A program made the translations under genes and the position numbers. The notes under the pieces are model-generated. The model was given only the letters and a program-made list of their open reading frames with translations, was not told the DNA's origin and ran no database searches. A DNA stretch of 64,000 bases from an uncultured Actinomycetota bacterium (GTDB taxonomy: Bacteria; Actinomycetota; UBA4738; HRBIN12): contig CAVXMB010000005.1 of NCBI GenBank assembly GCA_963762745.1, forward strand, positions 72,283 through 136,282. The letters run 5' to 3'. Of this stretch, positions 1 to 23,855 are shown one piece after another (the first letter of the stretch is position 1; each line of letters opens with the position of its first letter).

Positions 1-562
1 CTCGGAGGAACTCGAGCCCGAGCGGGTTCTGGATCCTGAACCGGTTCGGCTCGCCGTAGATGCTGCCGGGGCGGAACACCAGCCAGACCAGACAGAGGAT
101 GCTTCCGGCGAGCCATGCACGGCCGACCCAGCGCCAGTTCGGCGTCGGGGGTGCGCCCGTCGGGAACAACAGGAAGAGCATCGGGATCGCGAGCGCCATC
201 ACCGCGGGGAACAGGTTCGCCGTCATCCCGGCGATCCCCGTGCCGGGGAGACTCGCAACGTAGGGCTCCCGGAAGGCAACCTCGAGGTATCCCTCGCCGG
301 GCAAGCCGAGGGCGAGGCTCCCGCCCATCACGAGGAACACCCAGCCGAGCACGTTGTCCGCTCGCGTCACGATGAGCCGACCGAGCGTGGAGAACCCGGC
401 AACGAGCACGATCATCAGCACGACGAAGAGTGGATCGCCGCCACCCTCCCCGGTGATGGCCCCCGCGATCACGGCGATGATGACCAGCGACAGGATGCTG
501 AGCGAACCGAGATGGACGATCCGGGCCCATCGAGCCGAGCGCGTCGTCGTTCGTTGGCTCAC
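1..562 (-). CDS. sensor histidine kinase paralogue, N-terminal polytopic membrane domain only (3' part lies beyond the window edge)
   Basis: Own minus-strand translation from GTG 562-560: VSQRTTTRSARWARIVHLGSLSILSLVIIAVIAG...IVTRADNVLGWVFLVMGG...PMLFLLFPTGAPPTPNWRWVGRAWLAG...RFRIQNPLGLEFLR. Absent from the ORF track because no stop lies in the window. High GC3. Same membrane layout and FPxG-x4-P-x-WR motif as kinases 559-2697 and 5339-7414. Its GTG overlaps the stop of the upstream kinase (GTGA). Confidence 0.6.
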   Translation of the reverse strand, partial: MSQRTTTRSARWARIVHLGSLSILSLVIIAVIAGAITGEGGGDPLFVVLMIVLVAGFSTLGRLIVTRADNVLGWVFLVMGGSLALGLPGEGYLEVAFREPYVASLPGTGIAGMTANLFPAVMALAIPMLFLLFPTGAPPTPNWRWVGRAWLAGSILCLVWLVFRPGSIYGEPNRFRIQNPLGLEFLR

Positions 563-2697
563 GATCGCACCCGTTCCGGGACCCGAAGGCGCCCCGAGAC
601 CATCGTTCCGGTGCCCGGCGTCGATGTGATGGTGACGTCGCCTCCGAACGCGGCCAGTCGATCACGCATGTTCTGCAGGCCGGTACCACCTGCCGTCTCG
701 ATCGCGTCGAAGCCGATGCCGTCGTCTTGCACGCGGAAGGACAGCGTGTCGCCCTCGCGAGCGAGGGACACGTGGACCCCGGCGGCTCGTGCGTACTTGG
801 CGGCGTTCTGCATCGCCTCGAGGCACACGAAGTAGACGGCCGCCTCGATCTCGATCGGAAGGCGGCCGACACCGTCGCCGTCGACCGAGACGGGCACCCC
901 GGCAGCTCGGCCCTGCACCGCAAGGGCGACGCCGATCCCCTGCTCCTCCAGCACCGCGGGATAGATGCCCGTGGCCAGGTCGAGCAGGGTCGTCAGCGCG
1001 AGATCCGTCTGATCCCGCAGTTCCATGAGTTGGTCCGCCGCGCGCTGCGGATCCTTCCCAGCCGTTGCGCCTGCGAGGCGGAGCTTGACGGCGAGCGCCA
1101 CCAGGTGCTGCTGCGCGCCGTCGTGGATGTTGCGTTCCAGACGGCGACGCTCCGCGTCGTGGGCTTGCACGATCCTCATCCGGGACGCCTGGAGCTCCTG
1201 TGCGCGAACGGACAGTTCATCGACCCTCGCCTGGAGCTCGTCCGTGAGTGCCTGGTTCCTGACGACGAGCCCCGTCTGCGACGCGAGGTCGCGGAGCAGC
1301 TTCTCTTCGGCCGGGCGGAGCGCCTTGCCCGGGTCGGTCCACACCCGGATCTGTCCGAGCACCTGGTGCTGATACCGGATGTCCTCGGCACGCCACTCGC
1401 GACCCGTCTCGTTCCCGTCGCTTGGCCACGAGGCCGCTCGGAGCCGTTCGTCGCCGGTGTCGAGCCAGATCTCGACGCGCGTCGCCCCGGTCGCTTCCGC
1501 GATCACCCGTGCCGTCCGCGGGACGATGTCGCCCGCCGCGTACGTGGCGCCGACCCTTTCATTGAAGCGAGCGAGCACCTCATAGGGCTCCGCCCGCTTC
1601 CCGAAGACGAGGCGGTTGGCGAGCTTCGTGGCGCGTCGCCGGATCGGTTGGAAGAGCGCCGCGACGATCGCAGTCGCCACGAGTGAGGGGACGAGCGAGT
1701 CGGCGTCGGTCGCGCGCGTGCCGATCACCACGACGACCACGACGTAGATGGCTGTGATGAACGCGGCGAGCGCCCCGAACACGAGCGTCCGCCGGATCAC
1801 GACGTCGATCTCGTACAGCCGGTGTTTCAAGATCGCGATCCCCGTGGCGACCGGGATCCCGATCGCGAGCACGAGGAAGAACAGGAAGAACAACGCGTTG
1901 TTCAGGCCGACGTAGTTCTCCGACGCGAAGCTGCCGATCATCAGGACGAGCGCCGCAAGACCGACGTACGCCAGCCAGCGGATCTGCTGGCGCTCGTCCC
2001 CGGACGACCTCCTGAACCTGAGCACCAGTGAGGTCAAGGCTGCGAGCGCCGCGGCGAGCGAACCGATCCCGCCCACCGTCAGGAAGACGCTCGCGAGCGG
2101 CGCGAGCGACTCGACCGCGGTCGGATTGTCGAGCGGGAACCGTTCCGGCGTCTCGAGCGGGTTCGGCGAGAGGATGAACCCGAGGATCGCGAGGAGCGTG
2201 AAGCCTCCGATCGCCCACAGGAGGAAGCGCCATCGAGGCGATGGTGGACGGCCGTCCGGGAACAGGAGCAAGACGAGCGGCACGGCCACCAGCGCCAGCA
2301 CGAAGAGCCAGCTCTGGAGCCACGCGAGCGGAACCACCATCGTCATCCGCCCGGTCACGAGCCCCCGCGTCACGAACTCGTCCGCGAAGGCGGTGATCGC
2401 GAAGATCGCGGCGATCCCACAGAAGAGCCATCCGATGGCGTTCCGAGGGTGACGCGATGCGATCAGTGCGCCGACGGCGCCGTACCCGAGCACCAGGCCG
2501 ATCCCTCCGTAGATGAAGACGACGTCGTCATCCCCCTGCCGGTACCCGGCCTCCAGCACGAGTCCCCAGGCGATGAGGACGACGTCGAGGGTCAGCAGCC
2601 CCCACGCCAGCCGGGAAGCCGTCCTCGCTCTCACGGCTCCACGACCGAGAGGAGTCTCGAGGTGTTCCGCCCTTCGATCATGACCGGATGCTCCCAT
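559..2697 (-). CDS. sensor histidine kinase, NarL-partner type (polytopic membrane sensor + HisKA_3 + HATPase_c)
   Basis: 712-aa ORF with many hydrophobic segments in the first ~400 aa, including LLLFPDGRPPSPRWRF. H-box ERRRLERNIHDGAQQHLVAL is typical of HisKA_3. C-terminal ATPase boxes QNAAKYA, DDGIGF and GTGLQNMRDRL...TSTPGTGT. Confidence 0.9.
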   Translation of the reverse strand: MGASGHDRRAEHLETPLGRGAVRARTASRLAWGLLTLDVVLIAWGLVLEAGYRQGDDDVVFIYGGIGLVLGYGAVGALIASRHPRNAIGWLFCGIAAIFAITAFADEFVTRGLVTGRMTMVVPLAWLQSWLFVLALVAVPLVLLLFPDGRPPSPRWRFLLWAIGGFTLLAILGFILSPNPLETPERFPLDNPTAVESLAPLASVFLTVGGIGSLAAALAALTSLVLRFRRSSGDERQQIRWLAYVGLAALVLMIGSFASENYVGLNNALFFLFFLVLAIGIPVATGIAILKHRLYEIDVVIRRTLVFGALAAFITAIYVVVVVVIGTRATDADSLVPSLVATAIVAALFQPIRRRATKLANRLVFGKRAEPYEVLARFNERVGATYAAGDIVPRTARVIAEATGATRVEIWLDTGDERLRAASWPSDGNETGREWRAEDIRYQHQVLGQIRVWTDPGKALRPAEEKLLRDLASQTGLVVRNQALTDELQARVDELSVRAQELQASRMRIVQAHDAERRRLERNIHDGAQQHLVALAVKLRLAGATAGKDPQRAADQLMELRDQTDLALTTLLDLATGIYPAVLEEQGIGVALAVQGRAAGVPVSVDGDGVGRLPIEIEAAVYFVCLEAMQNAAKYARAAGVHVSLAREGDTLSFRVQDDGIGFDAIETAGGTGLQNMRDRLAAFGGDVTITSTPGTGTMVSGRLRVPERVRS

Positions 2698-2870: not shown

Positions 2871-3278
2871 ATGACGACGATCCTGGTGGGAACCGACACC
2901 TCGGCGGCCGCGGATCTCGCGGTCGAGGATGCGGCGCGTCTCGCGCGCGACCGCGGCGCCGAGCTCTTGGTCTTGTACGTGAAGTCCGAGGGTGACGTTC
3001 GGGCGGTCGTCGACCCCGACCGCGCGGCAGATCCCCAGACGCATCTGCGGCGCCTCGCCGGGAGGTTCCCCGGTCTGTCGATCACGACACGGATCGAGGA
3101 CGGCGACGCGGCGGCTCGGATCGTCGACGTGGCCGAGGAGATCCGAGCGGACACCATCGTGCTCGGGAACCGCGGCACCCACGGGTCACGATGGCGCGTC
3201 CGCGAGACGGTCCCGAACCTCGTGCTCCGACACGCGCCGTGCAGCGTCTACATCGTCGACACGCGGAAGGCGCAGTGA
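2871..3278 (+). CDS. universal stress protein (single USP domain)
   Basis: 135 aa: MTTILVGTDTSAAADLAVEDAARLA...IVLGNRGTHGSRWRVRETVPNLVLRHAPCSVYIV. GAAGGAGG lies 6 nt upstream of the ATG. Confidence 0.9.
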   Translation: MTTILVGTDTSAAADLAVEDAARLARDRGAELLVLYVKSEGDVRAVVDPDRAADPQTHLRRLAGRFPGLSITTRIEDGDAAARIVDVAEEIRADTIVLGNRGTHGSRWRVRETVPNLVLRHAPCSVYIVDTRKAQ

Positions 3279-3334: not shown

Positions 3335-4015
3335 CTACGACTGATCGCGGAGGAAGGCGAGCACCGCCATCACTCGGCGGTGCACGTCTGGCTCCTCGGT
3401 CAGACCCAGCTTGTGGAACAACGAGTTGATGTGCTTCTCGACCGCACGCTCGGTGAGGAAGAGCGACTTCGCGATCGCGGCGTTGTTCTGGCCCTGGGCC
3501 ATGTGACCGAGCACCTCGCGCTCCCGGTCGGTCAGTCGCGCGAGCGGCGAGTGCGCGAGGTGCTCCTTCGCGGCGACGAGCGCCTCGACGATCTTCGGGT
3601 CGAGGACGCTCCCGCCGCGGGCCACCTCGGTCAGCGCACGCACCAGCTCCTCGACGTCGGCCACGCGTTCCTTCAACAGGTATCCGAGGCCGGCCGCGCC
3701 GTCTTTCAGCAGGTCGTACGCGTACTCCTCCTCCGCGAACTGCGAGAGCACCACGACCCCGATCTCCGGGTGCGACGCTCGGATCTGCTTCGCACCCCGG
3801 ATCCCCTCGTCGGTCCCGCTCGGCGGCATGCGGATATCGGTGAGCACGGCATCCGGCCCGTGCTCGTCGACCGCGAAGAGCAGCTCGTCGAGGCTCGACG
3901 CCATGCCGACGATCTCGACTTCTTCGGCGGTCGCGAGGAGGGCGGCGGTTCCTTCCCGCACGAGGTAGTTATCCTCGGCGAAGACCACCCGCAGCGGCAT
4001 GCGCGGATGGTACAC
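3335..4015 (-). CDS. response regulator, NarL/LuxR family (REC + GerE HTH)
   Basis: 226 aa. Receiver RVVFAEDNYLVREG...DAVLTDIRMPP...VVVLSQ. HTH LTDREREVLGHMAQGQNNAAIAKSLFLTERAVEKHINSLFHKLGL. The start may be the internal Met at 4000. Confidence 0.9.
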   Translation of the reverse strand: MYHPRMPLRVVFAEDNYLVREGTAALLATAEEVEIVGMASSLDELLFAVDEHGPDAVLTDIRMPPSGTDEGIRGAKQIRASHPEIGVVVLSQFAEEEYAYDLLKDGAAGLGYLLKERVADVEELVRALTEVARGGSVLDPKIVEALVAAKEHLAHSPLARLTDREREVLGHMAQGQNNAAIAKSLFLTERAVEKHINSLFHKLGLTEEPDVHRRVMAVLAFLRDQS

Positions 4016-9166: not shown

Positions 9167-11518
9167 ATGTCCTATCGAACGATCGTCGTGGGCACGGACG
9201 GTTCGCCGACCGCGTCCGTCGCCGTCGAGGTCGCGCAGAAGCTCGCGAAACGCCTCCGGGGCAAGCTGATCCTCGTCGGCGCGCTCGACGCGTACGGCGT
9301 CTCTCGGCAGCCGTTGCAGACGGCCCTTTACGAGGCCGCGGAGGCCGCGCGCGCGAAGAAGGTCGATGCGACCGCGGAGCTGATCGAGGGAACGCCGGGT
9401 GAGTCCATCCTCGCGGCCGCGATCAAGCACGACGCCGATCTGATCGTCGTCGGTAACCGCGGCATGGGGCAGGCGACCCGGTTCCGGCTGGGGAGCGTGC
9501 CCGATTGGATCGCGCACGATGCGCCGTGTGACCTGTTGATCGTGGACACGACCGGTCGCGCCGGCCCGCGGGAACCCGCCCCGCCCTACATGCGGATCCT
9601 GGCGGGCACGGACGGCTCGGGCACGGCGACCGAGGCCGTCCGCAAGTCCTACACGCTCGCGTCGATGTACGCGGGCTCGGTGATCCTCGTGCATGTGGGC
9701 GATCCGCTCGTCGGCGCCATCAGGCTGGAGGAGGTCGCGTCGACGCGGCCCGAGGACGTCGAGGTCGAGAAGCGAACCGTCGAAGGGGATCCCGCCCAAC
9801 GGATCTGCGAGCTCGCCGAGGCGGAGGGCGTGCAGCTGGTCGTGGTCGGGAACAAGGGGATGTCGGGCGTCCGGCGGTTCCTCGGCTCCGTGCCGAACAA
9901 GGTCGCACACGAGGTGCCCTCCGACGTCTTGATCGTGAAGACCGTCGATCGGTCGGCCGAGGACCTCGTGGCCGGCCACGGCGGGCTCGTCGGGGTCGAC
10001 GGCCGGCAGCTCGCGGTCTACCGCGACGAGGACGGGCATACGTACGAGCTCTCCCCCCGGTGCACCCATATGGGCTGCACCGTCGATTGGAACGACGCCG
10101 CGAAGACCTGGGACTGCCCGTGCCACGGATCGCGGTTCTCCTTCGACGGGTCGGTGGTGCGAGGGCCCGCGGCGGAGCCTCTCGAACGCGTGGGAGGAAC
10201 GGCGGCGGGCCTCGGTCCGGGAGAGGTGACCGCCGCCGAGCCGGCATCCGGGTCCGCGTCGTCGCTCGCCGGAAGCGCTGGCTCGGGCGGGGAGCGGGGC
10301 GCGAAGAAGGAGCGATACGTCGTCGTCGGCGCGAGCCTCGCCGGCGCCACGGCCGCCGCGACCCTGCGCGAGGAAGGCTTCGACGGCGACGTCGTCCTGA
10401 TCGGGTCGGAGCCGACGTTTCCGTACGAGCGACCGCCCCTGTCGAAGACGTTCCTCCGCGGCGAGTCGACGATCCAGGAGGCGATGGTCCGGCCAGAGGC
10501 GTTCTATGCCGACAACCGGATCGAAACGCGGTTCGGGACGACGGTGATCGGTGTGGACACGGCGGGGAAGACGCTCACGATCGCCGGTGGCGATCCCGTG
10601 CCCTTCGACAAGCTCCTGATCGCAACGGGTGCCCGGAACCGCCGCTTCCCGATCCCCGGGATCGACCTCGAAGGGGTCCTCGACCTCCGGACACTGGGCG
10701 ACGCGGCCAGGATCCGGGCAGAGATGCTGCCCGGACACCGGGTCGTGATGGCCGGGATGGGGTTCATCGGCTCCGAGGTCGCGGCGTCGCTCCGCCAGCG
10801 TGGTCTCGAGGTCCACGTCGTGGCGGGCGGGAAGGCGCCGCTCGACCGAGTGCTCGGCGAGGACGTGGGACGCGTCATCGAAGGGATCCACCGCGACCAC
10901 GGCGTCGCGATGACGTTCGACGATCAGGTGGCGAGCTTCGAAGGGAACGGCCGCGTCCGGAGCGTGAAGACCGCGAGCGGCGTCAGCGTCCCCTGCGACT
11001 TCGTGGTGCTCGGCCTCGGCGTCGAGCCGGTCGCGGACTTCCTCGAGGGATCGGGGATCGACGTCGACGACGGCATCGTGGTCGACGAGCATTGCCGGGC
11101 GAGCGTCGACGGTGTCTTCGCCGCCGGCGACGTCGCCAACCACTACCACCCGGTCTTCGAGCGCCGGATCCGCACCGAGCACTGGAACAACGCGAAAGCG
11201 CAGGGTCGCGTCGCCGCCCTGAACATGATGGGCCGCGACACGCCGTACGACGAGATCCACTGGTTCTGGTCCGACCAATACGAGCACACGATCCAGTACG
11301 CCGGGTACCACCGGGAGTGGGACGATCTCGTGATCCGCGGAAGCCTGGAATCTCGGAGCTTCGCGGCGTTCTATCTGCTCGGGGGTCGGGTCCAGGCCGT
11401 GGTCTCACTGGACCGTCCCGCCGACGTCCAGGACGCGATGGCCATCATCCGCTCCGGCGGCCGAGCCGACCCCGCGAAGCTCCGCGACGAGGGCGTGGAG
11501 CTCGCCTCATTAGGATGA
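9167..11518 (+). CDS. four-domain fusion: USP - USP - Rieske [2Fe-2S] - FAD/NAD(P)H ferredoxin-reductase-like oxidoreductase
   Basis: 783-aa uninterrupted ORF. USP1: RTIVVGTDGSP...LIVVGNRGMGQATRFRLGSVPDWIAHDAPCDLLIV. USP2: RILAGTDGSG...LVVVGNKGMSGVRRFLGSVPNKVAHEVPSDVLIV. Rieske: CTHMGC...CPCHGSRF. Gly/Ser linker. Reductase: RYVVVGASLAGATAA...PYERPPLSK...VVMAGMGFIGSEVAA...VFAAGDVA...EHWNNA. Confidence 0.9.
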   Translation: MSYRTIVVGTDGSPTASVAVEVAQKLAKRLRGKLILVGALDAYGVSRQPLQTALYEAAEAARAKKVDATAELIEGTPGESILAAAIKHDADLIVVGNRGMGQATRFRLGSVPDWIAHDAPCDLLIVDTTGRAGPREPAPPYMRILAGTDGSGTATEAVRKSYTLASMYAGSVILVHVGDPLVGAIRLEEVASTRPEDVEVEKRTVEGDPAQRICELAEAEGVQLVVVGNKGMSGVRRFLGSVPNKVAHEVPSDVLIVKTVDRSAEDLVAGHGGLVGVDGRQLAVYRDEDGHTYELSPRCTHMGCTVDWNDAAKTWDCPCHGSRFSFDGSVVRGPAAEPLERVGGTAAGLGPGEVTAAEPASGSASSLAGSAGSGGERGAKKERYVVVGASLAGATAAATLREEGFDGDVVLIGSEPTFPYERPPLSKTFLRGESTIQEAMVRPEAFYADNRIETRFGTTVIGVDTAGKTLTIAGGDPVPFDKLLIATGARNRRFPIPGIDLEGVLDLRTLGDAARIRAEMLPGHRVVMAGMGFIGSEVAASLRQRGLEVHVVAGGKAPLDRVLGEDVGRVIEGIHRDHGVAMTFDDQVASFEGNGRVRSVKTASGVSVPCDFVVLGLGVEPVADFLEGSGIDVDDGIVVDEHCRASVDGVFAAGDVANHYHPVFERRIRTEHWNNAKAQGRVAALNMMGRDTPYDEIHWFWSDQYEHTIQYAGYHREWDDLVIRGSLESRSFAAFYLLGGRVQAVVSLDRPADVQDAMAIIRSGGRADPAKLRDEGVELASLG

Positions 11519-15090: not shown

Positions 15091-16167
15091 ATGGATGCCA
15101 CCCGGGTCGACTGGTCGATGGGCTCCCAGGCGGCACAACTCGCCGACTGGGATGCAGCCCTCGCGATCGGTCGCCGGGTCGCGGGTCCCGGCGTTCGCGT
15201 CCCGGCCGCAGAGCGCGCGAGGATGCGGGAGGACTTCGCGGAGTTCGTCTCGTTCTCCGAAGAACGCATCAAGGAGTTCACCTCGCTCGATCCCGGTGGG
15301 TTCCGTTCCCGTGCCTGGGTCATGGGCCGGGGCGACTGGATCCGCGCGAACCTCGGCGGGCTCCAGCGGCTGCTGGAGCCGCTCGCGGGCCGGATCCTCG
15401 CGAAGCAGTCCGGTCACGGCACGTTCCGGAGGAAGGCGCTGGGCGCCCAGGCCGGCGGACTCCTCGGCTACGTCTCGAGGAGGGTGCTGGGTCAATACGA
15501 CGCCTTCCTCCCGCCCGACGACGAGGGGTTGCTGTACTTCGTCGGACCCAACGTGGCGGAGGTCGAGCAGCGGTTCTCGCTTCCCGCTCGTGACTTCCGG
15601 CTGTGGATCGCGATCCACGAGGTGACGCATCGGGTGCAGTTCGGGGCCGCTCCGTGGCTCCGGAGCCACATCCGCGGTCAGGTCGACCGCTACCTCGGCA
15701 CGATCTCCCTCGAGTCGACGGACTTCGGGGCGCAGCTGCGACGAGCGATCGAGGAGGCGCGCGCCGGCGCGGACATCCGGGGCATGGGCGGGGTCTTCCT
15801 GCTGCTGAACGAGGAACAGCGCGAGATCGTGAAGCACGTCCAGGGCGTGATGTCGCTCCTCGAGGGTCACGCCTCATTCGTGATGAACGAGGTCGCGAAG
15901 GATCACGTCGCCGACCTGCCGAAGATGCGGACGGCCCTGGCAGAGCGCAGGCGGCGTGCGAGCGGCGCGGAGCGCGCGTTCCAGCGCGCGATCGGCTTCG
16001 ACAAGAAGATCGAGCAGTACGATGCGGGCGAGCGGTTCGTGCGAGAGGCGGTGTCGCGCTCCGGCATGGAAGGGTTCAACCGGGTGTGGCTCGCGCCCGA
16101 GAGCCTCCCGAGCGTCGAGGAGATCGCCGAACCCGACCGCTGGGTGGCGCGCGTCGCCGGGAGCTGA
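15091..16167 (+). CDS. zinc-dependent metalloprotease, DUF2342-type
   Basis: 358 aa. HExxH motif in LWIAIHEVTHRVQF. It occupies the position directly upstream of tilS-hpt-ftsH, as in other actinobacteria. Confidence 0.8.
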   Translation: MDATRVDWSMGSQAAQLADWDAALAIGRRVAGPGVRVPAAERARMREDFAEFVSFSEERIKEFTSLDPGGFRSRAWVMGRGDWIRANLGGLQRLLEPLAGRILAKQSGHGTFRRKALGAQAGGLLGYVSRRVLGQYDAFLPPDDEGLLYFVGPNVAEVEQRFSLPARDFRLWIAIHEVTHRVQFGAAPWLRSHIRGQVDRYLGTISLESTDFGAQLRRAIEEARAGADIRGMGGVFLLLNEEQREIVKHVQGVMSLLEGHASFVMNEVAKDHVADLPKMRTALAERRRRASGAERAFQRAIGFDKKIEQYDAGERFVREAVSRSGMEGFNRVWLAPESLPSVEEIAEPDRWVARVAGS

Positions 16168-16168
16168 C

Positions 16169-17164
16169 ATGCCTCGCCGGCCTCCGGCGGTCGCGCGGGT
16201 GCTGGAGCGGGTCACCAAGACGGCTCGCGAGCACGAGATGTTCGCCCCGGGCGAGTTGGTCCTCGTGTCGTGCAGCGGCGGTCCCGACTCGGTCTGCCTC
16301 CTCTATTCCTTGTGGCATCTCCGGCGCCTGTTCAAGATCCGCCTCGCCGTCCTCCACTTCGACCATCGGCTGCGTCCTGATTCCGGTGAGGACGCCGCAT
16401 ACGTGCGAAGGCTCGCCGCCCGTCTGGAGCTCCCGGTCCACGTCCGGACCGCGGAAGACGCGCCGGTCAAGGGCGAGTCGGTCGAAGCCTGGGGGTTCAT
16501 CGCTCGGAGCCGTGCGCGGGCGGCCGTCGCGTCCGAGGTCGGCGCCTCGAAGATCGCCCGCGCGCACACCCTGGACGACCGAGCCGAGTGGTTGCTGGTC
16601 TGCCTGATGGCCGGGGCCGGTCCGCTCGGCCTGGCCGGGCCGTCGGCGCATCATGAGGCCGACGTCGAGCCTCTCTTCGACGTGAGTCGCGACGAGGTCA
16701 TGGCGTTCTGCCGAGCGCTCCACCTTCGGCCTCGGCGGGATCCGACCAACGAGGACACCTCGAAGCTCCGAGCGGCGATCCGACACCAGGTCCTACCCGT
16801 GATGGACGAGGTCCGCAAAGGTGGGGCGCGGAAGGCGATCGCCAGGACCGCCGATCAGCTTCGGATGATCGAGCCGTTGATCCGCCGGGAGATGGCGTCC
16901 CGGGGCGCCGGCTCCGCCCGATGGGACGGCGGGTTCCGATTCGAGGTCGATCGGGTGCACGAGGCGCCGTACGAGTTCATCGACCGGATGAGCCTGGCGA
17001 GGGAGTTCCGGCTGATGGGGCATCGGCTCGCGGAAGCCGACGTCGAGGCGGTGATCGATCTGGCGCGCGGGCGTCCCGGCCGGCGACGTGATCTCTCCGG
17101 GGGGTTGAAGGCGATCCGCGAGAAGGGGTACGTTCGAGTTTCTCGTTCTTCCCCCGAGAGCTGA
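16169..17164 (+). CDS. tilS: tRNA(Ile)-lysidine synthetase
   Basis: ATG 16169 within track ORF 15956-17164. PP-loop LVSCSGGPDSVCLL and HFDHRLRPDS. Located upstream of hpt. Confidence 0.88.
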   Translation: MPRRPPAVARVLERVTKTAREHEMFAPGELVLVSCSGGPDSVCLLYSLWHLRRLFKIRLAVLHFDHRLRPDSGEDAAYVRRLAARLELPVHVRTAEDAPVKGESVEAWGFIARSRARAAVASEVGASKIARAHTLDDRAEWLLVCLMAGAGPLGLAGPSAHHEADVEPLFDVSRDEVMAFCRALHLRPRRDPTNEDTSKLRAAIRHQVLPVMDEVRKGGARKAIARTADQLRMIEPLIRREMASRGAGSARWDGGFRFEVDRVHEAPYEFIDRMSLAREFRLMGHRLAEADVEAVIDLARGRPGRRRDLSGGLKAIREKGYVRVSRSSPES

Positions 17165-17192
17165 TGGGTTCTTCGACGCCGAAGGGGGAGCG

Positions 17193-17771
17193 ATGACCGC
17201 GGTCTCTACACTGACCGACTACGTGCAGGCCTACGAACCCGACATCGAACGAGTCCTGATCTCCTCCGAGGAGATCCAGGGCAAGCTCGCGGAGATGGGG
17301 CGGCAGATCTCCGCGGACTACGAGGGCAAGTCGCTGTTGCTCGTCGGGGTCCTGAAGGGCGCCTTCGTGGTGATGGCCGATCTGGCCCGCTACGTCCGCT
17401 TGCCGCTGGAGTTCGACTTCATGGCCGTCTCGTCCTACGGAGCCGCCACGAAGACCTCGGGGGTCGTCCGGATCCTCAAGGACCTGGACCACGACCTCGA
17501 CGGGATGCACGTGCTGCTCGTGGAGGACATCGTGGACTCCGGTCTCACGCTCAAGTACCTGCTGAAGAACCTCGCGGCGAGGAAGCCCGCGTCGCTCGAG
17601 GTCGCCGCGCTGCTCCGCAAGACCGGGATCCAGAAGGTCCCGCTCGACATCCGGTACGTGGGCTTCGACATCCCACCGGACTTCGTGGTCGGCTACGGCC
17701 TCGACTTCGACGAGCGCTATCGGAATCTTCCGTACATCGCGACGCTGAAGCCCGAGGCGTACGGCGGCTAG
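17193..17771 (+). CDS. hpt: hypoxanthine phosphoribosyltransferase
   Basis: 192 aa. PRPP motif VLLVEDIVDSGLTL and ...VGFDIPPDFVVGYGLDFDERYRNLPYI. Confidence 0.93.
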   Translation: MTAVSTLTDYVQAYEPDIERVLISSEEIQGKLAEMGRQISADYEGKSLLLVGVLKGAFVVMADLARYVRLPLEFDFMAVSSYGAATKTSGVVRILKDLDHDLDGMHVLLVEDIVDSGLTLKYLLKNLAARKPASLEVAALLRKTGIQKVPLDIRYVGFDIPPDFVVGYGLDFDERYRNLPYIATLKPEAYGG

Positions 17772-17807
17772 CGGAACCGGCCTGCGGCGCCGGCCGTCCA
17801 ACCGAAC

Positions 17808-18179
17808 GTGAAGCGGTTCGCCCTCGCCCTCGTCACCGTCGCCATCGCCTCATGCGGAGGCGCTGGCGCCGGCGACGGGGCCTCGGGGATCCGCGGAGAG
17901 GCACGGTCCGGTCCCCAGTGCCCGGTCGAAGTGCAAGGCTCGCCGTGTCCCGACCTCCCGTATGAAGGAACGGTGATCGCGACGAACACGGAGACAGACG
18001 AGGAGTTCACCGTCGAGACGGACTCGCAGGGTCGCTTCGAGCTCTCCCTCGAGCCGGGGACCTACGAGGTGTCGATCGTGTCCGAGTCCTCGCCCCCGTT
18101 CGCGAAGCCGCAGACCGTGACCGTCGAACAAGGGTCGTTCGCGGAGATCGTCGTGTCCGTCGACACCGGCATCAGGTAG
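17808..18179 (+). CDS. lipoprotein with carboxypeptidase-regulatory-like beta-sandwich domain
   Basis: 123 aa. Lipobox VAIASC after the signal peptide MKRFALALVT. GTVIATNTETDEEFTVETDSQGRFELSLEPGTYEV. Confidence 0.7.
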   Translation: MKRFALALVTVAIASCGGAGAGDGASGIRGEARSGPQCPVEVQGSPCPDLPYEGTVIATNTETDEEFTVETDSQGRFELSLEPGTYEVSIVSESSPPFAKPQTVTVEQGSFAEIVVSVDTGIR

Positions 18180-18287
18180 CGACGGCCGCCCCATCTGGGG
18201 CTGGTGCTACCCTGACTCCGGGTTGGGACGTGCCATCTGCCGGCCCGTTGCATCCCCCAGGATCGCGCTCCAGGGAAGAGGCCGTCG

Positions 18288-20207
18288 TTGTCCAAGCCAG
18301 AACCTCCGTTCCGACGACTCGCTCGCACCCCGACCATCTGGATCGTGGGCGCGGTCGTGCTGTTCTTCGGGTTGCTGTCCGTCATGCAACGGCCCGAGAC
18401 CGCGGAGAGGATCAAGCTCAACGAGTTCTGGACCCTGCTCGAAGCCGGTGAGATCCGGAACGCGGAGATCCTCGAGGGCGACCAGCAGATCCAGGGGAAG
18501 CTCGAGGACGGCGCCGACTACGTGGTGTCGTATCCGGCCGAGAGCATCGACGAGATCACCACCCAGCTCCAGGACGCGGGTGTCACGACGGAAGCGACGC
18601 CGCAGAAGCCGAACGAGATCGTGGGGCTCCTGTACTACGTGCTTCCGATCCTCCTGCTCGCCGGACTGTTCCTCTGGATGATGAATCGAGCACAGGGCGG
18701 CGGCGGCCGCGTGATGCAGTTCGGTCGCAGCCGCCACAAGACGGTCGGCAAGGATCAGCCCAAGACCACGTTCAAAGACGTCGCGGGCGTGGATGAGGCG
18801 ATCGAGGAGCTGGAGGAGGTCAAGGAGTACCTCCAGCATCCGGCCAAGTTCCAGGCTATGGGGGCGAAGATCCCGCGAGGAGTGCTGTTGTTCGGCCCCC
18901 CCGGGACCGGGAAGACCCTCCTCGCCCGGGCCGTCGCGGGCGAAGCGGGCGTGCCCTTCTATTCGATCAGCGGCTCCGACTTCGTCGAGATGTTCGTAGG
19001 GGTGGGCGCGGCGCGCGTTCGAGATCTCTTCGAGCAGGCGAAGGCGAGCGCGCCCGCCATCGTCTTCGTGGACGAGATCGACGCCGTCGGCCGCCACCGC
19101 GGCGCCGGTCTGGGCGGCGGCCACGACGAGCGCGAGCAGACGCTGAACCAGCTCCTGGTGGAGATGGACGGGTTCGATCAGCGGTCGACGGTGATCCTGA
19201 TGGCGGCCACCAACCGGCCCGACATCCTTGACCCCGCGCTCCTGCGTCCCGGGCGCTTCGACCGTCAGATCGTCGTGGACCGGCCTGACCTCGAGGGACG
19301 GAAGGCGATCCTCCGCGTCCACGCGAAAGGCAAGCCACTCGACCCCGGCGCGGACCTCGACATCCTCGCTCGGCGCACGCCGGGCTTCACGGGGGCCGAC
19401 CTGGCCAACGTCATCAACGAGGCCGCTCTCCTCGCCGCCAGGCGCTCGAAGAAGAGCATCACGATGAAGGAGATCGAGGAGGCGGTCGACCGCGTCATGG
19501 CCGGGCCCGAGCGCAAGAGCCGCGTGATGAGCGAGGAAGAGCGTCGCCTGATCGCGTACCACGAAGGCGGCCACGCGATGGTCGCGCACGTCCTCCCCAA
19601 CACCGACGAGGTGCACAAGATCACCGTGATCCCTCGCGGGCGGGCGCTCGGCTACACGCTCACGCTTCCCGAACAGGACAAGTTCATGATGACCCGCGAG
19701 GAGCTCCGCGACGAGCTGGCGATGCTGATGGGAGGCCGGGTGGCCGAAGAGATCGTGGCCGGCGACATCTCCACCGGCGCCGGCAACGACATCGAGCGCG
19801 CGACCAAGATCGCGCGTCAGATGGTGACCGAGCACGGGATGAGCGATTCGATCGGACCCCGGACCCTCGGACAGAAGCAAGGAGAGGTGTTCCTCGGCCG
19901 CGACTGGGCCTCCACGCCCGACTACTCGGACGCCGTCGCATTCGAGATCGACCAAGAGGTCAGCCATCTCCTCGACGAGGCGCACGACGTCGCGCTCGAG
20001 ATCTTGAACGAGCACCGGCAGAAGCTCGACGAGCTCGCCGCGCTCCTGCTCGCGAAGGAGACCCTTGATCGCGAGGAGGTCGAGCTGTTCTTCAAGCCGG
20101 TCACCAAACGGTCCCCTCGCGCGCCGGAGGTCCGCAGCGCCGGCCTCGCCGTGTCGCGCACGGAGATGTTCCCCCAGCCTGAGGGCCCAGGTCCCCTGCG
20201 GCGATGA
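18288..20207 (+). CDS. ftsH: ATP-dependent zinc metalloprotease FtsH
   Basis: 639 aa with two N-terminal TM segments. Walker [12 protein letters not shown] region PGRFDR, and zinc site HEGGHA. Confidence 0.97.
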
Positions 20208-20866
20208 CGGATCGCTGGGCCACCTTCGACTGCTACGGCACGCTGATCGACTGGGACGGCGGGGTACGCCGGGCGCTCGGCAGGGTCTGGCCGGAGGAGG
20301 ACGGGGAGCGGCTGTTCCAGCGCTACCACGACGTCGAACCGCGCATCCAGGCCGGGCGGGGCATCTCCTATCGTCAGGTCCTGCGCGAGACGTTGTCCGC
20401 GATCGCCGAGGCGGACCAGCTCGAGGTGCCTCCCGGGCAGGACGACGCGCTCGCCGACTCGCTCCCGTCGTGGCGGCCGTTCCCGGAGGTGCCCGGAGCG
20501 CTCCGCGAGCTCCGGGATCGTGACTGGAAGCTCGGGATCCTTTCGAACACGGACCCGGACATGCTCGCCGCGTCACTGAAGACGATCGGGGTCGAGGTGG
20601 ACCTGCGGATCACGGCGGCCGAGGCGGGGTCCTACAAGCCGGCCTTCGGACACTGGGACACGTTCTTCCGTACCACGACGGCCCAGCGGGAGCGTCACGT
20701 CCATGTCGGAGCGTCGCTCTATCACGACGTCGAGCCGTGCGCGCAGCTCGGGCTCCCGTGCGTGTGGATCAATCGACTGGACGAGTCGAGCGACCTCCCG
20801 CGCGCCGGCGAGCTGTTCGATCTCGGCAGGCTGCCCGCCACGCTCGACGCACTCGTTCCCCGGTAG
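20204..20866 (+). CDS. HAD-superfamily hydrolase (haloacid dehalogenase type II-like)
   Basis: 220 aa. Motif [11 protein letters not shown] and GILSNTD. ATGA overlap with the ftsH stop. Confidence 0.8.
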
Positions 20867-20876
20867 CATCCGCCCG

Positions 20877-21467
20877 ATGGATCTGCTCGGACCTCCCGAG
20901 GCGTTCGACGCCAAGAAGGTGGAGGAAGGCGTGCGCCTGATCCTCGAGGGCATCGGGGAGGATCCCGATCGCGGTGGGCTTCGCGAGACACCCGCACGCG
21001 TCGCGCGCATGTACGAGGAGATCTTCGCGGGCATCGGCAAGGACGCCTCGCAGCTCGTCACCGTCGTCGAAGGTGCCGACTACGACGAGATGATCATGGT
21101 CCGCGACATCCCTCTGCAGTCGTTCTGCGAGCACCACCTGATCCCGTTCGCCGGCCGCGCGCACGTCGCGTACATCCCGAACAAGGCGCAGCAGATCACC
21201 GGGCTCTCCAAGATCGCGCGCGTGGTCGACCTCCTGGCGAAGAAGCCGCAGGTCCAGGAGCGGCTGACGACCGAGATCGCCGAGGCGATCGATCTGGCCC
21301 TTTCACCCCGCGGCGTGTTCGTGGTGATCGAGGCCGAGCACTTCTGCATGACGATGCGTGGGATCAAGAAGCCCGGGTCGGTGACCGTGACGTCGACCGT
21401 GCGCGGGCTCTTCCGCTCCGATGCCCGGACCCGCCAGGAGGCGATGGACCACATCGGCATGCGCTGA
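20877..21467 (+). CDS. folE: GTP cyclohydrolase I
   Basis: ATG 20877 within track ORF 20703-21467. [21 protein letters not shown]...[10 protein letters not shown]...GLSKIARVV...QVQERLT...HFCMTMRG. Confidence 0.93.
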
Positions 21468-21496
21468 GATCCGGGCGCCGCATTACCATCTGGGAC

Positions 21497-22345
21497 ATGG
21501 GGCTCGTGTGGCGTTGCCGTGATCGCGAGCTGCCGCTCGGCGAGCGGACGCTCGTGATGGGCATCGTGAACGTCACCCCCGACTCCTTCAGCGACGGGGG
21601 GATGTTCGAGGATCCCGATGCCGCGATCACGCATGGTCTGCGGCTCCTGGAGGAGGGCGCCGACATCCTCGACGTCGGCGGCGAGTCCACCCGGCCGGGT
21701 TCGGACCCGGTGGCGGAGGACGAGGAGCGCCGGCGGGTCCTGCCGGTGATCGAGGGGCTCCGGCGCGAAGCGCCGGAGGCCCTCCTGTCGGTGGACACCC
21801 GCAAGGCTCCGGTCGCGAGCGAGTGCCTGGCGGCCGGCGCCGATGTCGTGAACGACATCGGCGCCGGCACCGACGCTGAGATGTTCGACGTGGTCGCGTC
21901 CACGGGAGCCGGGATGGTGTTGATGCACATGCGGGGCGAGCCGACGACGATGCAGGTGGATCCGCACTACGACGACGTCGTCACCGAGGTGCGCGGGTAC
22001 CTCGCCGAGCGCTTGGAGGCGGCGGGCGCCGCCGGGATCGGCCGCGACCGCCTCTGCATCGACCCCGGGATCGGTTTCGGGAAGAACCTCGAACACAACC
22101 TCGCGCTGCTCCGTTCGATCGGCTCGTTCCGCGAGCTGGGCGTGCCGGTCCTCGCCGGTGCCTCGCGGAAGCGTTTCGTCGGCGAGCTCTCGGGGAGCGA
22201 CGATCCCGCGGGTCGCCTCGAGGGTTCGGTCGCGGCAGCGGTCTGGTGTGCGACGCAGGGCGTGGAGGTGGTCCGCGTCCACGACGTCGGTCCCACCGTG
22301 CGGGCCCTCCGTGTCGTGGACGCGATCGCTCGGGAGCGACCGTGA
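21497..22345 (+). CDS. folP: dihydropteroate synthase
   Basis: 282 aa. VMGIVNVTPDSFSDGG...GADILDVGGESTRPG...DPGIGFGK. Confidence 0.93.
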   Translation: MGLVWRCRDRELPLGERTLVMGIVNVTPDSFSDGGMFEDPDAAITHGLRLLEEGADILDVGGESTRPGSDPVAEDEERRRVLPVIEGLRREAPEALLSVDTRKAPVASECLAAGADVVNDIGAGTDAEMFDVVASTGAGMVLMHMRGEPTTMQVDPHYDDVVTEVRGYLAERLEAAGAAGIGRDRLCIDPGIGFGKNLEHNLALLRSIGSFRELGVPVLAGASRKRFVGELSGSDDPAGRLEGSVAAAVWCATQGVEVVRVHDVGPTVRALRVVDAIARERP

Positions 22346-22986
22346 CCGACGATCTGCCGATCGTGTTGCTCCTCCACGACGAGGGCCGCGGCGCCGACCA
22401 GTGGCGCGAGTTCGTCCCGCTCCTCGAGAGCCGTTTCCGTGTGGTCGCGCCGGACCTGCCGTCGCGTCCGACGCTCGACCACCTGCGCGCCGCGATCGAC
22501 GGCGAGCGGTGCGGGGTGATCGGGCACGGGACCGGCGGTGCACTCGCCCAGGTGTTCGCGACCGAAGGTGGTGTCGACGCGATGGTGCTGCTCGATGCCC
22601 CGCGCGCGGAGGGTGTCGACGACGAAGCGCTCGCGTCCTTCGACTTCCCCGTACTCCTGCTGTGGGGTGAAGACGACGAGGTGGTGCCGGTCTCGATCGC
22701 GGAGGAGCTGAACGACGCGATCCCGACGTCCACGCTCGGACTCTTGCCGGGATGCGGCCACGAGCTCACCGACGACGCGGCCGCCACGATCGCACCGATG
22801 ATCCTGGAGTACCTCCGCGCCCGGTATCTCAAGCAGCCGCACTCGGCGGCGCACGGTCACGACGCCGATCACGCGCACGACGGCGTGGTGCGGATCCAGC
22901 TCGAACGACGGCCTCCGTGGGTGGACCTCGAGGAGGACGAGCGAGACGATTGGTTCGTCGAGGATGACGAGGAGGCAGCGCCGTGA
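22342..22986 (+). CDS. alpha/beta-hydrolase-fold protein with His/Asp/Glu-rich C-terminal tail
   Basis: GTG 22342 (GTGA overlap with folP). VLLLHDEGRG...GHGTGGALA...LLLWGEDDEVVP...GCGHEL. Tail HSAAHGHDADHAHDG...EEDERDDWFVEDDEEAAP. Confidence 0.7.
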   Translation: MTDDLPIVLLLHDEGRGADQWREFVPLLESRFRVVAPDLPSRPTLDHLRAAIDGERCGVIGHGTGGALAQVFATEGGVDAMVLLDAPRAEGVDDEALASFDFPVLLLWGEDDEVVPVSIAEELNDAIPTSTLGLLPGCGHELTDDAAATIAPMILEYLRARYLKQPHSAAHGHDADHAHDGVVRIQLERRPPWVDLEEDERDDWFVEDDEEAAP

Positions 22987-23351
22987 GCCCAGCCCGCCTG
23001 TTCCTGACCGGGATCCGCACCGAAGGCCGCCACGGCGCACGTCCCGGAGAGAAGGACGAACCGCAGCCATTCGTCGTCGACCTCGACCTCGAGGTCGACG
23101 TGGGAGATGACTCCATCGAGGCGACGGCGGACTACCGTGAGATCACGGACGCGGTCCGCGAGATCGTGGAGCACGGGTCGTTCGATCTCATCGAGACGAT
23201 GGCCGACGCGATCGCTCGCCGGATCGCCTCGGCCCCTCGGGTCGTTGGCGTGACCGCCATCGTGCACAAGCCGAACGCGGCCGGCCGGCTTGCGATCGAC
23301 GGGGTCGCCGCCGCCGCGACGGCGACCCGGGGCGCCGGCGCAGGCGAGTAG
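22983..23351 (+). CDS. folB: dihydroneopterin aldolase
   Basis: 122 aa. GIRTEGRHGARPGEKDEPQPFVVDLDLEV...DYREI...LIETMA. GTGA overlap with the previous gene. Confidence 0.88.
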   Translation: MSPARLFLTGIRTEGRHGARPGEKDEPQPFVVDLDLEVDVGDDSIEATADYREITDAVREIVEHGSFDLIETMADAIARRIASAPRVVGVTAIVHKPNAAGRLAIDGVAAAATATRGAGAGE

Positions 23352-23357
23352 GTCGAT

Positions 23358-23855
23358 ATGGGCGTCGTTGCCTTCCTCGGGCTCGGTTCGAACCTCGGGG
23401 ATCGCCTCGCGAACCTCCAGTCCGCGGTCGACGTTCTGCAGACCGAGCCCGGGCTCAGGGTGACGGCGTCCAGCCGCGTGTGGGAGACGACGCCGGTGGG
23501 CGGTCCGCCGCAGCCCGACTATCTGAACGCCGTCATACGGGTCGAGACGGATCTCTCGGCGCGGGATGTCCTCGATGCCGCTCGCCGCGTCGAGGCCCGC
23601 CTCGGCAGGGTCCGGAAGGAGCGATGGGGCGCGCGCACCATCGACGTCGACATCCTGCTGTACGACGAGGAGCAGATCGACGAGCCCGACCTGGTGGTCC
23701 CGCATCTCCGGCTGACCGAGCGAGCGTTCGTCGTCCTGCCGCTGCTCGAGCTCGAGCCGGATCCGGTCCTGCCCGACGGCACGCGTCTGAAGGAGGTGCG
23801 GATCGATACGAACGGGGTCGTCCCCTCCGCCTCCCCGCTCGCGGTCCGCCCATGA
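23358..23855 (+). CDS. folK: 2-amino-4-hydroxy-6-hydroxymethyldihydropteridine pyrophosphokinase
   Basis: 165 aa. AFLGLGSNLGDR...ERWGARTIDVDILLYD...LVVPHLRLTERAFVVLPL. Confidence 0.93.
   Translation: MGVVAFLGLGSNLGDRLANLQSAVDVLQTEPGLRVTASSRVWETTPVGGPPQPDYLNAVIRVETDLSARDVLDAARRVEARLGRVRKERWGARTIDVDILLYDEEQIDEPDLVVPHLRLTERAFVVLPLLELEPDPVLPDGTRLKEVRIDTNGVVPSASPLAVRP

Follow-up and report, generated by a model that had tools for sequence, protein, structure and literature searches.

A USP-USP-Rieske-ferredoxin reductase fusion of uncultured Actinomycetota is paired with a DUF2269-cupredoxin protein in a putative membrane redox module

Introduction

The locus described here raises the question of which electron acceptor is served by a protein that joins two USP domains, a Rieske [2Fe-2S] domain and a flavin adenine dinucleotide (FAD)/NAD(P)H ferredoxin reductase in a single polypeptide. 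The corresponding open reading frame (ORF), hereafter referred to as the fusion, encodes 783 amino acids and lies in a stretch of 64,000 nucleotides (the window) from an uncultured Actinomycetota bacterium (GTDB lineage UBA4738; HRBIN12; assembly GCA_963762745.1, contig CAVXMB010000005.1, positions 72,283 to 136,282). A preliminary description of the window had proposed that electron transfer in this protein is switched by nucleotide binding to the USP pair, and had stated that no oxygenase, P450 or cytoplasmic partner is encoded nearby. The view that a partner is lacking is refuted by our analysis, as the gene abutting the fusion upstream encodes a membrane-anchored type-1 copper protein and this adjacency is conserved. 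Based on this pairing, on the class of the Rieske domain and on the predicted topology of the partner, we propose that the fusion feeds electrons from the cytoplasm into a conserved membrane redox module and serves as its control subunit. While each of the domains is familiar singly, their combination and the conserved membrane partner were previously undescribed, and literature searches on USP with Rieske, on DUF2269 and on YhfW retrieved nothing on the fusion or on the gene pair.

Results

The fusion is a genuine protein of a narrow uncultured lineage

The fusion ORF runs from ATG to TGA with no internal stop codon, and its start codon is preceded at 8 nucleotides by a GGAGG Shine-Dalgarno sequence. 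Its G+C content at third codon positions (GC3) is 0.90, similar to that of other real genes in the window, where the overall G+C content is 69%. All four parts of the protein passed the Pfam cut-offs: Usp (PF00582) was detected in two stretches (E 4.7e-48; 163.8 bits vs. a cut-off of 24), Rieske at residues 265–340 (E 9e-13), Pyr_redox_2 at residues 383–680 (E 4e-62) and Reductase_C at residues 699–782 (E 5.5e-24). The reading of this ORF as a USP-USP-Rieske-reductase polypeptide is therefore borne out, as are the Rieske motifs CTHMGC and CPCHGS, which are invariant in 52 homologues, and the Gly/Ser linker, since residues 346–380 are rich in Gly, Ser and Ala (Table 1). Two of the motif assignments in the preliminary description stood only in part. 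The G-x2-G-x9-G(S/T) tail ascribed to both USP domains is present in the first one (x9-GS), whereas the spacer of the second is x8 (GNKG-MSGVRRFL-GS) and is x9 in most relatives (RRFLLGS). Likewise, of the two GxGxxG/A motifs ascribed to the reductase, the second (GMGFIG) was confirmed, while the first is of the G-x-S-x-x-G type (VGASLAG).

Neither a hydrophobic segment of transmembrane (TM) quality nor a signal peptide was found in the fusion, which is therefore cytoplasmic. In an AlphaFold2 model built from a 52-sequence family alignment, each domain was predicted with confidence (mean predicted local distance difference test, pLDDT, of 82.9), while the linker (residues 350–379) was disordered (pLDDT < 50). 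The reductase was the sole part matched in Foldseek searches with the full model. A scan for promoters and terminators gave matches that were not above chance expectation.

To assess its distribution, the fusion was searched against 5.8 billion proteins. At least 120 clusters (formed at 90% identity), originating from JGI, ENA, NCBI and Logan assemblies, contained the same five Pfam domains with 57–96% identity over 100% of the length, and the named clusters carried labels of Actinomycetota metagenome-assembled genomes. An assembly chimera, considered in the preliminary description, could thus be ruled out independently of read-level data, because the clusters come from several independent assembly sources. 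In addition, when the full set of 1.84 billion representatives from a 50%-identity clustering was scanned with HMMER, one other full-length fusion emerged (P0121, 776 amino acids, 58% identity), and all other matches covered part of the query alone. The four-domain protein is therefore genuine but limited to a narrow uncultured lineage, and the tandem USP architecture is indeed rare. It is represented by many database entries, yet it is uncharacterized, so that the finding cannot be dismissed as a common and already described arrangement. A homologue with 84% identity (P0067 in locus L005, ENA contig_14396) was excluded from the alignments because of frameshift errors; the frameshifted stretches in both its fusion and its cupredoxin gene are most likely assembly errors and not pseudogenes. 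A scan of GTDB genomes was dominated by plain reductases recovered via the PYERPPLSK pattern, and its informative loci were L006 and L013.

A DUF2269 gene accompanies the USP-USP-Rieske gene in all loci with available DNA

The stop codon (TAG) of the partner gene directly precedes the ATG of the fusion with a gap of 0 nucleotides, which we took as translational coupling. Hidden Markov models (HMMs) of four components of the module were scanned over 165 loci. A DUF2269-family gene was found beside the USP-USP-Rieske gene in every locus with adjoining DNA available (the window, L001–L006, L013, L086–L092, L094–L097, L099, L101–L103, L107 and L109), in comparison to none of the 78 loci holding a plain ferredoxin reductase alone. 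The same arrangement was recovered in five further loci (L166–L170) by four look-ups that started from the DUF2269 side. At around 60% identity (L001, L003 and L087), the pair was kept while all other neighbours were different. In line with these results, we consider it highly probable that the fusion and the DUF2269-cupredoxin protein work together.

Split and simpler forms of the module were also observed. In L013 (45% identity), three tightly packed genes encode a DUF2269-cupredoxin protein, a USP-USP-Rieske protein (347 amino acids) and a reductase (411 amino acids), with a stop codon and a new start codon at the position of the flexible linker of the fusion. Split proteins were likewise found among the 50%-identity representatives (P0125, P0163 and P0123). 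In distant relatives with 40–50% identity (L088–L097, L099–L103, L107 and L109), a USP-USP-Rieske protein of approximately 345 amino acids is encoded beside a bare DUF2269 protein of approximately 155–160 amino acids; gene order and orientation vary, while adjacency is constant. The module of these relatives has no cupredoxin, and no reductase was present in the available DNA, up to 5 kb on each side. A further variant of the architecture was noted in the representative library, where P0168 (474 amino acids) has an additional Rieske domain (CTHMGC…CPCHQS) after its USP-USP-Rieske part.

Downstream of the fusion, the window encodes a stand-alone cyclic nucleotide monophosphate (cNMP)-binding protein, which is also present in L006, L013, L087, L095–L097, L167, L168, L169 and L170. 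In L013, the cNMP-binding domain is fused to an MFS transporter, and in several loci the gene overlaps the start codon of DUF2269. It was found in 8 module loci reached from the Rieske side and in four of the five loci reached from the DUF2269 side, and represents a recurrent third member of the module.

From the conserved pairing and from the split and simpler forms, we conclude that the ancestral unit consists of a DUF2269 and a USP-USP-Rieske protein, optionally accompanied by the cNMP-binding protein. In the lineage of the window, a blue-copper domain was added to DUF2269 on the outer side and a reductase to the Rieske protein; both are present there and both are absent from the simpler forms. 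The reductase is accordingly viewed as a late addition on a flexible tether, which was a neighbouring gene before it became fused. Three features are new: a USP-USP-Rieske unit that is predicted to be rigid, a DUF2269 protein as its obligate partner and, in one lineage, the acquisition of a reductase on the cytoplasmic side and a cupredoxin on the outer side of the membrane.

Two other groups of neighbouring genes were considered in this context. A 2-oxoacid:ferredoxin oxidoreductase is adjacent to the module in L166–L170 and was tried as the ancestral electron donor; this candidate was rejected, as the flanks of L089, L094, L099 and L102 are unrelated, and the adjacency represents clade-level synteny. 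A B12-dependent methionine synthase flanks the simple module in L166–L170 and in L095–L097, which is probably also synteny only.

The Rieske domain belongs to the bc1/b6f class

The Rieske domain carries, besides its four cluster ligands, the extra Cys pair C304 and C319 as well as S322, and all six Cys and His residues are invariant in the four-domain family. PetC models matched the domain at E 1e-19, and all 75 of its PDB sequence matches were b6f, bc1, arsenite oxidase (AioB) or small soluble b6f-like proteins (the latter PDB 9rk3, 9rk4, 5cxm and 8hn2), with no dioxygenase ferredoxin among them. By its sequence, the domain is thus of the bc1/b6f class and not of the dioxygenase-ferredoxin class. 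It differs from the BphF/TodB class, defined by C-x-H…C-x-x-H without the extra Cys pair and by a co-encoded oxygenase; neither an oxygenase nor a P450 was encoded in any neighbourhood examined. A bc1/b6f-type cluster with Ser (and usually Tyr) as hydrogen-bond donors has a high redox potential, and a centre of this kind would be a poor donor to oxygenases or menaquinone and a good match for a blue-copper centre.

The fusion shares CTH(M/L)GC…CPCHGS, the disulphide Cys pair and the Ser with PetC-type b6f/bc1 subunits, small b6f-like Rieske proteins and AioB. However, in contrast to PetC-type subunits, its Rieske domain has no TM anchor or export signal, is cytoplasmic, and is fused to USP domains and a flavoprotein; moreover, the partner of PetC-type subunits is cytochrome b, whereas the membrane partner of the fusion is a 4-TM DUF2269 protein. 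Since the fusion lacks TM segments and a signal peptide and no cytochrome b gene was found in any neighbourhood examined, it is not a subunit of a Rieske/cytochrome b complex.

Flavoprotein-Rieske fusions as such are common, and the preliminary description had compared the fusion to AIFM3. This analogy was evaluated with bacterial Rieske-reductase fusions of approximately 520 amino acids rather than with the AIFM3 sequence itself. P0156, P0190 and P0199, which consist of Rieske and Pyr_redox_2 without USP, show the same domain order as the fusion, Rieske and then reductase, and 33–40% identity to its flavoprotein part. The Rieske class, however, did not agree, as theirs is CPHxG…CPWH and that of the fusion is CTHMGC…CPCHGS. 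The analogy is therefore confined to the architecture. The same Rieske subtype as in the fusion was also observed C-terminal to ferredoxin reductases (L110 694–2355, P0124 and P0128; approximately 535–553 amino acids). In L111–L165, it occurs at the C-terminus of many proteins of approximately 500–600 amino acids, with L113 and L120 being DAO-family flavoproteins according to Pfam, which we presume to be YhfW-like. The bc1/b6f-type Rieske subtype hence appears to be a recurrent output module of flavoenzymes.

The partner combines a four-helix DUF2269 domain with a type-1 copper domain

The partner protein was assigned by Pfam to DUF2269 (PF10027) and Cupredoxin_1. Its DUF2269 score is borderline, with 28.0 bits for the whole protein and 30.2 bits for the TM part vs. 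a cut-off of 28, while bare DUF2269 partners score 34–39 bits. The copper ligands H208 (in VQHNV) and C250-x2-H253-x2-M256 show amicyanin spacing and are invariant down to 46% identity. A profile of the cupredoxin family matched amicyanin, plastocyanin, auracyanin and the NirK cupredoxin domain, and the copper ligands coincided in these alignments. Consistently, Foldseek searches with the AlphaFold model of the partner (pLDDT 88.9, with values above 90 in the cupredoxin domain) retrieved auracyanin, amicyanin and plastocyanin; the cupredoxin part alone was matched, and no solved structure similar to the TM bundle was recovered in these searches.

In 19 orthologues, DUF2269 contains on average 5.1 and 6.2 Lys/Arg residues in its loops 1 and 3, respectively, compared to approximately 0.5 in the N-terminal tail and loop 2. 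As loops 1 and 3 are basic, the positive-inside rule predicts that both the N-terminus and the cupredoxin domain of the partner are extracytoplasmic. At least 1,667 database entries are related membrane proteins of the DUF2269 subfamily, most of which have no cupredoxin. Few positions are invariant among the 139 members compared, and four of these are potential metal or haem ligands within TM helices: H9 and H20 (TM1), M93 (TM3) and M150 (TM4) were found in 139 of 139 sequences. The predicted topology puts H9/M150 close to the outer and H20/M93 close to the inner surface of the membrane, so that two His/Met pairs would span the bilayer as candidate ligands.

One DUF2269 partner showed a weak full-length match to UPF0093, which we take to be the HemJ family, at E 0.0037 and 18 bits vs. 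a cut-off of 34.2, that is, a distant resemblance and not membership. HemJ (PgdH2) is a homodimeric b-type haemoprotein of the membrane (PMC13564367). In the urate oxidase PuuD, cytochrome c is fused to the membrane domain DUF989, for which a distant similarity to DUF2269 was reported as well, at E 0.15 (PMC4562309). Both resemblances are leads, not proof. As analogues of the partner, PuuD and HemJ each have a small polytopic membrane domain that resembles DUF2269 distantly and in which redox chemistry takes place. The extracytoplasmic electron-transfer domain fused to it is a cytochrome c in PuuD, whereas it is a type-1 copper domain in the partner, and neither PuuD nor HemJ has a dedicated cytoplasmic Rieske or USP partner.

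A nucleotide-type USP pair and a ferredoxin reductase flank the Rieske domain

Residues 5–257 of the fusion aligned over the whole of the ATP-binding tandem USP Rv2623 (PDB 3cis and 2jax; E 7e-8), and its single USP domains matched the cAMP-binding USPs MSMEG_3811 (5ahw) and Rv1636 (1tq8). Among 52 family members, neither the Gly and Ser residues of the nucleotide loops nor the two TDGS motifs vary. Given these matches to ATP- and cAMP-binding proteins, the proposal that a nucleotide-sensing USP pair sits on an electron-transfer module is a reasonable reading of the sequence. The fusion shares tandem or single-domain alignment and nucleotide-loop motifs with Rv2623, Rv1636 and MSMEG_3811; these are, however, stand-alone proteins with assigned ligands, whereas the USP pair of the fusion is joined to a redox domain and its sequence does not discriminate between ATP and cAMP. 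The connector between USP2 and the Rieske domain is short and conserved (T259, D266 and G270 are invariant) and is predicted to hold the USP pair rigidly to the Rieske domain.

The reductase module matched PDB 3lxd at E 3.5e-75 in sequence and with a template-modelling score (TM-score) of 0.92, on target, in Foldseek, and it is closest to the ArR, PdR, TodA and BphA4 reductases. With PdR, ArR and BphA4-type enzymes (3lxd, 1q1r, 1d7y and 6tuk), residues 381–783 have in common the full fold and the Pyr_redox_2/Reductase_C composition. Those enzymes are stand-alone and serve separate low-potential ferredoxins for P450s or oxygenases, in contrast to the reductase of the fusion, which shares one polypeptide with a USP pair and a bc1/b6f-class Rieske domain and is connected to them by a tether. 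The fusion is named in databases as ‘FAD-dependent oxidoreductase’ or ‘dioxygenase ferredoxin reductase’ and, in JGI, as ‘3-phenylpropionate/trans-cinnamate dioxygenase ferredoxin reductase’. Since the reductase scored below the NCBIfam equivalog cut-offs of AndAa (322 vs. 650) and HcaD (299 vs. 450), the phenylpropionate dioxygenase name is unjustified for the fusion and misleading. At the end of the NAD-binding beta2 strand (residues 556–562; 10832–10852), VVDGG, which is present in most of the family, is replaced by VVAGGK in the clade of the window. With the acidic residue missing and a Lys nearby, the preference may be shifted from NADH towards NADPH.

Genomic surroundings of the module

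The features of the module and of its surroundings are compiled in Table 1. The 56-amino-acid ORF overlaps the upstream gene for the 254-amino-acid protein by 4 nucleotides and is separated from the cupredoxin gene by a gap of 4 nucleotides, and both genes may belong to the same operon as the module. They were tried as a conserved fourth component; this was rejected because they are restricted to close relatives, the 56-amino-acid ORF not being present in the loci with approximately 60% identity.

The cyclase domain of the histidine kinase upstream is partial, as it covers Pfam positions 3–81 of 183, and L005 has a 491-amino-acid cyclase gene at the corresponding place. This kinase may be linked to the cNMP-binding protein and to the cAMP-type matches of the USP domains. 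The genes between 559 and 4015, a second kinase, a single-domain USP and a LuxR/GerE-type regulator, resemble in their composition a DosR/DevR-type stress set. The kinase, USP and LuxR neighbours in the window and in its closest relatives fit a stress or energy-state context, which is not conserved among distant relatives. On the other side, a USP-ABC1/UbiB fusion gene is convergent with the module. The housekeeping cluster further downstream, which is conserved in actinobacteria and is interspersed with genes for a small protein with a CarboxypepD_reg domain, a HAD hydrolase and an alpha/beta hydrolase, places the module in a core chromosomal region; the other annotated genes of the window are mostly housekeeping genes.

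Table 1. Coordinates of the redox module, its parts and neighbouring genes within the 64,000-nucleotide window.
Feature	Coordinates	Strand	Remarks
HisKA_3 kinase (second)	559..2697	-	
Single-domain USP	2871..3278	+	
LuxR/GerE-type response regulator	3335..4015	-	
HisKA_3/HATPase histidine kinase, 930 amino acids	4622..7414	+	N-terminal partial class III adenylate/guanylate cyclase domain
Polytopic membrane protein, 254 amino acids	7439..8203	+	Tightly packed upstream; conserved in L005 and L006 alone
Single-TM ORF, 56 amino acids	8200..8370	+	…FRRFERWLVGLFMAVLVFVLERLVMRQIKKKE…; conserved in L005 and L006
Partner gene, 263 amino acids	8375..9166	+	DUF2269 4-TM (8375-8848) and type-1 copper cupredoxin (8849-9163)
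Fusion ORF, 783 amino acids	9167..11518	+	USP-USP-Rieske-linker-ferredoxin reductase; cytoplasmic
USP domain 1, residues 1-128	9167..9550	+	VGTDGS; G96-x2-G99-x9-G109-S110
USP domain 2, residues ~141-259	9587..9943	+	TDGS; G228-x2-G231-x8-G240-S241
Rieske [2Fe-2S] domain, bc1/b6f class, residues ~262-345	9950..10201	+	Ligands C299, H301, C317, H320
Flexible Gly/Ser/Ala/Pro linker, residues 346-380	10202..10306	+	Length and sequence vary
FAD/NAD(P)H ferredoxin-reductase module, ArR/PdR/BphA4 type, residues 381-783	10307..11515	+	Pyr_redox_2 and Reductase_C
Stand-alone cNMP-binding protein, 141 amino acids	11585..12010	+	FGEMAL...RRSAS phosphate-binding cassette intact; no DNA-binding domain
USP-ABC1/UbiB atypical kinase fusion, 727 amino acids	12007..14190	-	Conserved in L005 and L006
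Housekeeping cluster	15956..23855	+	tilS, hpt, ftsH, folE, folP, folB, folK

Discussion

In the module proposed here, NAD(P)H would reduce the FAD of the C-terminal reductase, from which electrons would be passed to the bc1/b6f-type Rieske cluster, tethered via the disordered linker of approximately 35 residues. The Rieske domain would then dock on the Lys/Arg-rich cytoplasmic loops of the co-translated DUF2269 protein, and electrons would cross the membrane via centres at the His/Met pairs H20/M93 (inner) and H9/M150 (outer), where, judging from the distant relative HemJ, haem b would be the most probable cofactor. From there, they would reach the outer type-1 copper and subsequently an external high-potential acceptor. 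Binding of ATP or cAMP to the USP pair would, together with the co-encoded cNMP-binding protein, gate this flow, so that the module would act as a regulated outlet for cytoplasmic reducing power. The complete transmembrane chain, from NAD(P)H via FAD, Rieske and DUF2269 to copper, is put forward tentatively, at somewhat under an even chance. From general knowledge, the same logic of cytoplasmic input, membrane relay and outer acceptor is found in NOX/ferric-reductase-domain proteins, in MsrQ with Fre and in FtrABCD, where the cupredoxin FtrB is combined with the membrane polyferredoxin FtrD; the membrane part of these systems, however, has no sequence relationship to DUF2269. FtrB (8vuk) was among the structural matches of the partner cupredoxin.

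Several observations weigh against this chain. The residue that follows CPCHGS-R is Phe in the window protein and Tyr in most relatives, and the redox potentials of the Rieske and copper centres are taken from their sequence class alone. The inter-domain geometry of the fusion is unreliable in the AlphaFold2 model, with a predicted template-modelling score (pTM) of 0.54. With regard to the membrane part, the cofactor in DUF2269 is putative, the match to UPF0093 lies below the Pfam threshold, and His/Met pairs are also typical Cu(I) ligands. No external acceptor in the form of an oxidase, NirK/nitrite reductase or multicopper oxidase was encoded in the window, and neither L001 nor L003 has a cNMP-binding gene nearby. 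The joint presence of reductase and cupredoxin, which was counted in loci and not in independent events, may reflect one or two events in a single lineage. Finally, neither a donor of electrons nor an outer acceptor is evident for the simpler module, which could therefore have served originally for sensing and not for bulk electron transfer.

For this last reason, a redox and nucleotide sensor is the strongest rival explanation, although we still regard it as unlikely. The Rieske domain would sense a redox state, be it that of the quinone pool, O2, NO or, via the reductase, NAD(P)H, with a small flux that serves signalling only, the USP pair and the cNMP-binding protein would integrate ATP and cAMP, and DUF2269 would be an anchor or an effector such as a channel or transporter. 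The module does consist of classic sensory domains, USP domains are often fused to transporters (for instance Na_H_Exchanger-Usp in L094) or to other proteins, as in the Usp-ABC1 protein of the window, and HisKA_3 kinases, a LuxR-type regulator and the cyclase-domain kinase surround the module in the window and in its closest relatives. A sensor, however, leaves unexplained why a full H,C,H,M copper site and an NAD(P)H reductase were added in the same lineage, and a wire would account better than an anchor for invariant His/Met pairs within the membrane near each of its faces. A membrane NAD(P)H:quinone oxidoreductase, with a quinone site of DUF2269 at the cytoplasmic face, electron exchange between Rieske and menaquinone, and the cupredoxin as a side branch, would agree with the quinol-interacting nature of bc1/b6f-class clusters and with a small polytopic membrane partner. 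We nevertheless consider it improbable: with menaquinone at about -70 mV, a high-potential Rieske cluster would be a poor reductant and the thermodynamics are expected to be unfavourable, and the co-acquired outer copper domain is left unexplained. HemJ, described as oxygen-independent (PMC13564367), could be cited in favour of a quinone link on the assumption that its electrons enter the respiratory chain; the same source, however, assigns quinone and respiratory-chain coupling to HemG (PgdH1) and not to HemJ (PMC13564367).

Two further alternatives were considered. The fusion of a cupredoxin to a polytopic membrane protein resembles CopC-CopD fusions, and DUF2269 might accordingly be a CopD-like translocator, with the cupredoxin capturing copper in a CopC-like manner and the Rieske-reductase acting as a cupric reductase or otherwise preserving the redox state in which the metal is transported. 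Both the invariant His and Met residues of the TM helices and the structural match to FtrB would suit copper handling. This possibility is nonetheless a remote one in our view, since the type-1 ligand set is complete and includes Cys, the best matches are amicyanin, auracyanin and plastocyanin and not CopC, no CopD match was obtained even at a permissive E-value, the cupredoxin is missing from most family members, and no other copper-homeostasis genes were found nearby. Alternatively, the fusion might be a soluble donor chain for an oxygenase or P450 encoded elsewhere, with the USP pair as a stress switch and the adjacency of the membrane-cupredoxin gene reflecting mere co-regulation. The reductases to which the C-terminal module is closest, its best NCBIfam matches, which are dioxygenase reductase models, and the JGI name all point in that direction. 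Yet the scores fall far under the equivalog cut-offs, and the USP-USP-Rieske protein is tied to DUF2269 even where the reductase is missing. The oxygenase-donor reading was rejected on the class of the Rieske domain and on the lack of an oxygenase or P450 in any neighbourhood examined, and we judge such a soluble chain to be very improbable.

Returning to the transmembrane module, the gene pair and the cNMP-binding protein could together represent a new type of transmembrane electron conduit, nucleotide-gated and with two His/Met centres and, in the lineage of the window, with an NAD(P)H reductase at its input and a blue-copper domain at its output. We regard this possibility as substantial, though less likely than not. 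The simple module of DUF2269 and USP-USP-Rieske would then be a widespread cousin of Rieske/cytochrome b modules, operating from the cytoplasmic side. If true, the chain proposed for the fusion would provide monoderm Actinomycetota with a compact route from NAD(P)H to the exterior that bypasses the quinone pool and is controlled by ATP or cAMP, and DUF2269 would receive its first functional assignment. The chain would also represent a rare case of a USP domain with a defined biochemical output, in a family whose mode of action has long been debated, and of a bc1/b6f-class Rieske domain that works on the cytoplasmic side with a partner other than cytochrome b.

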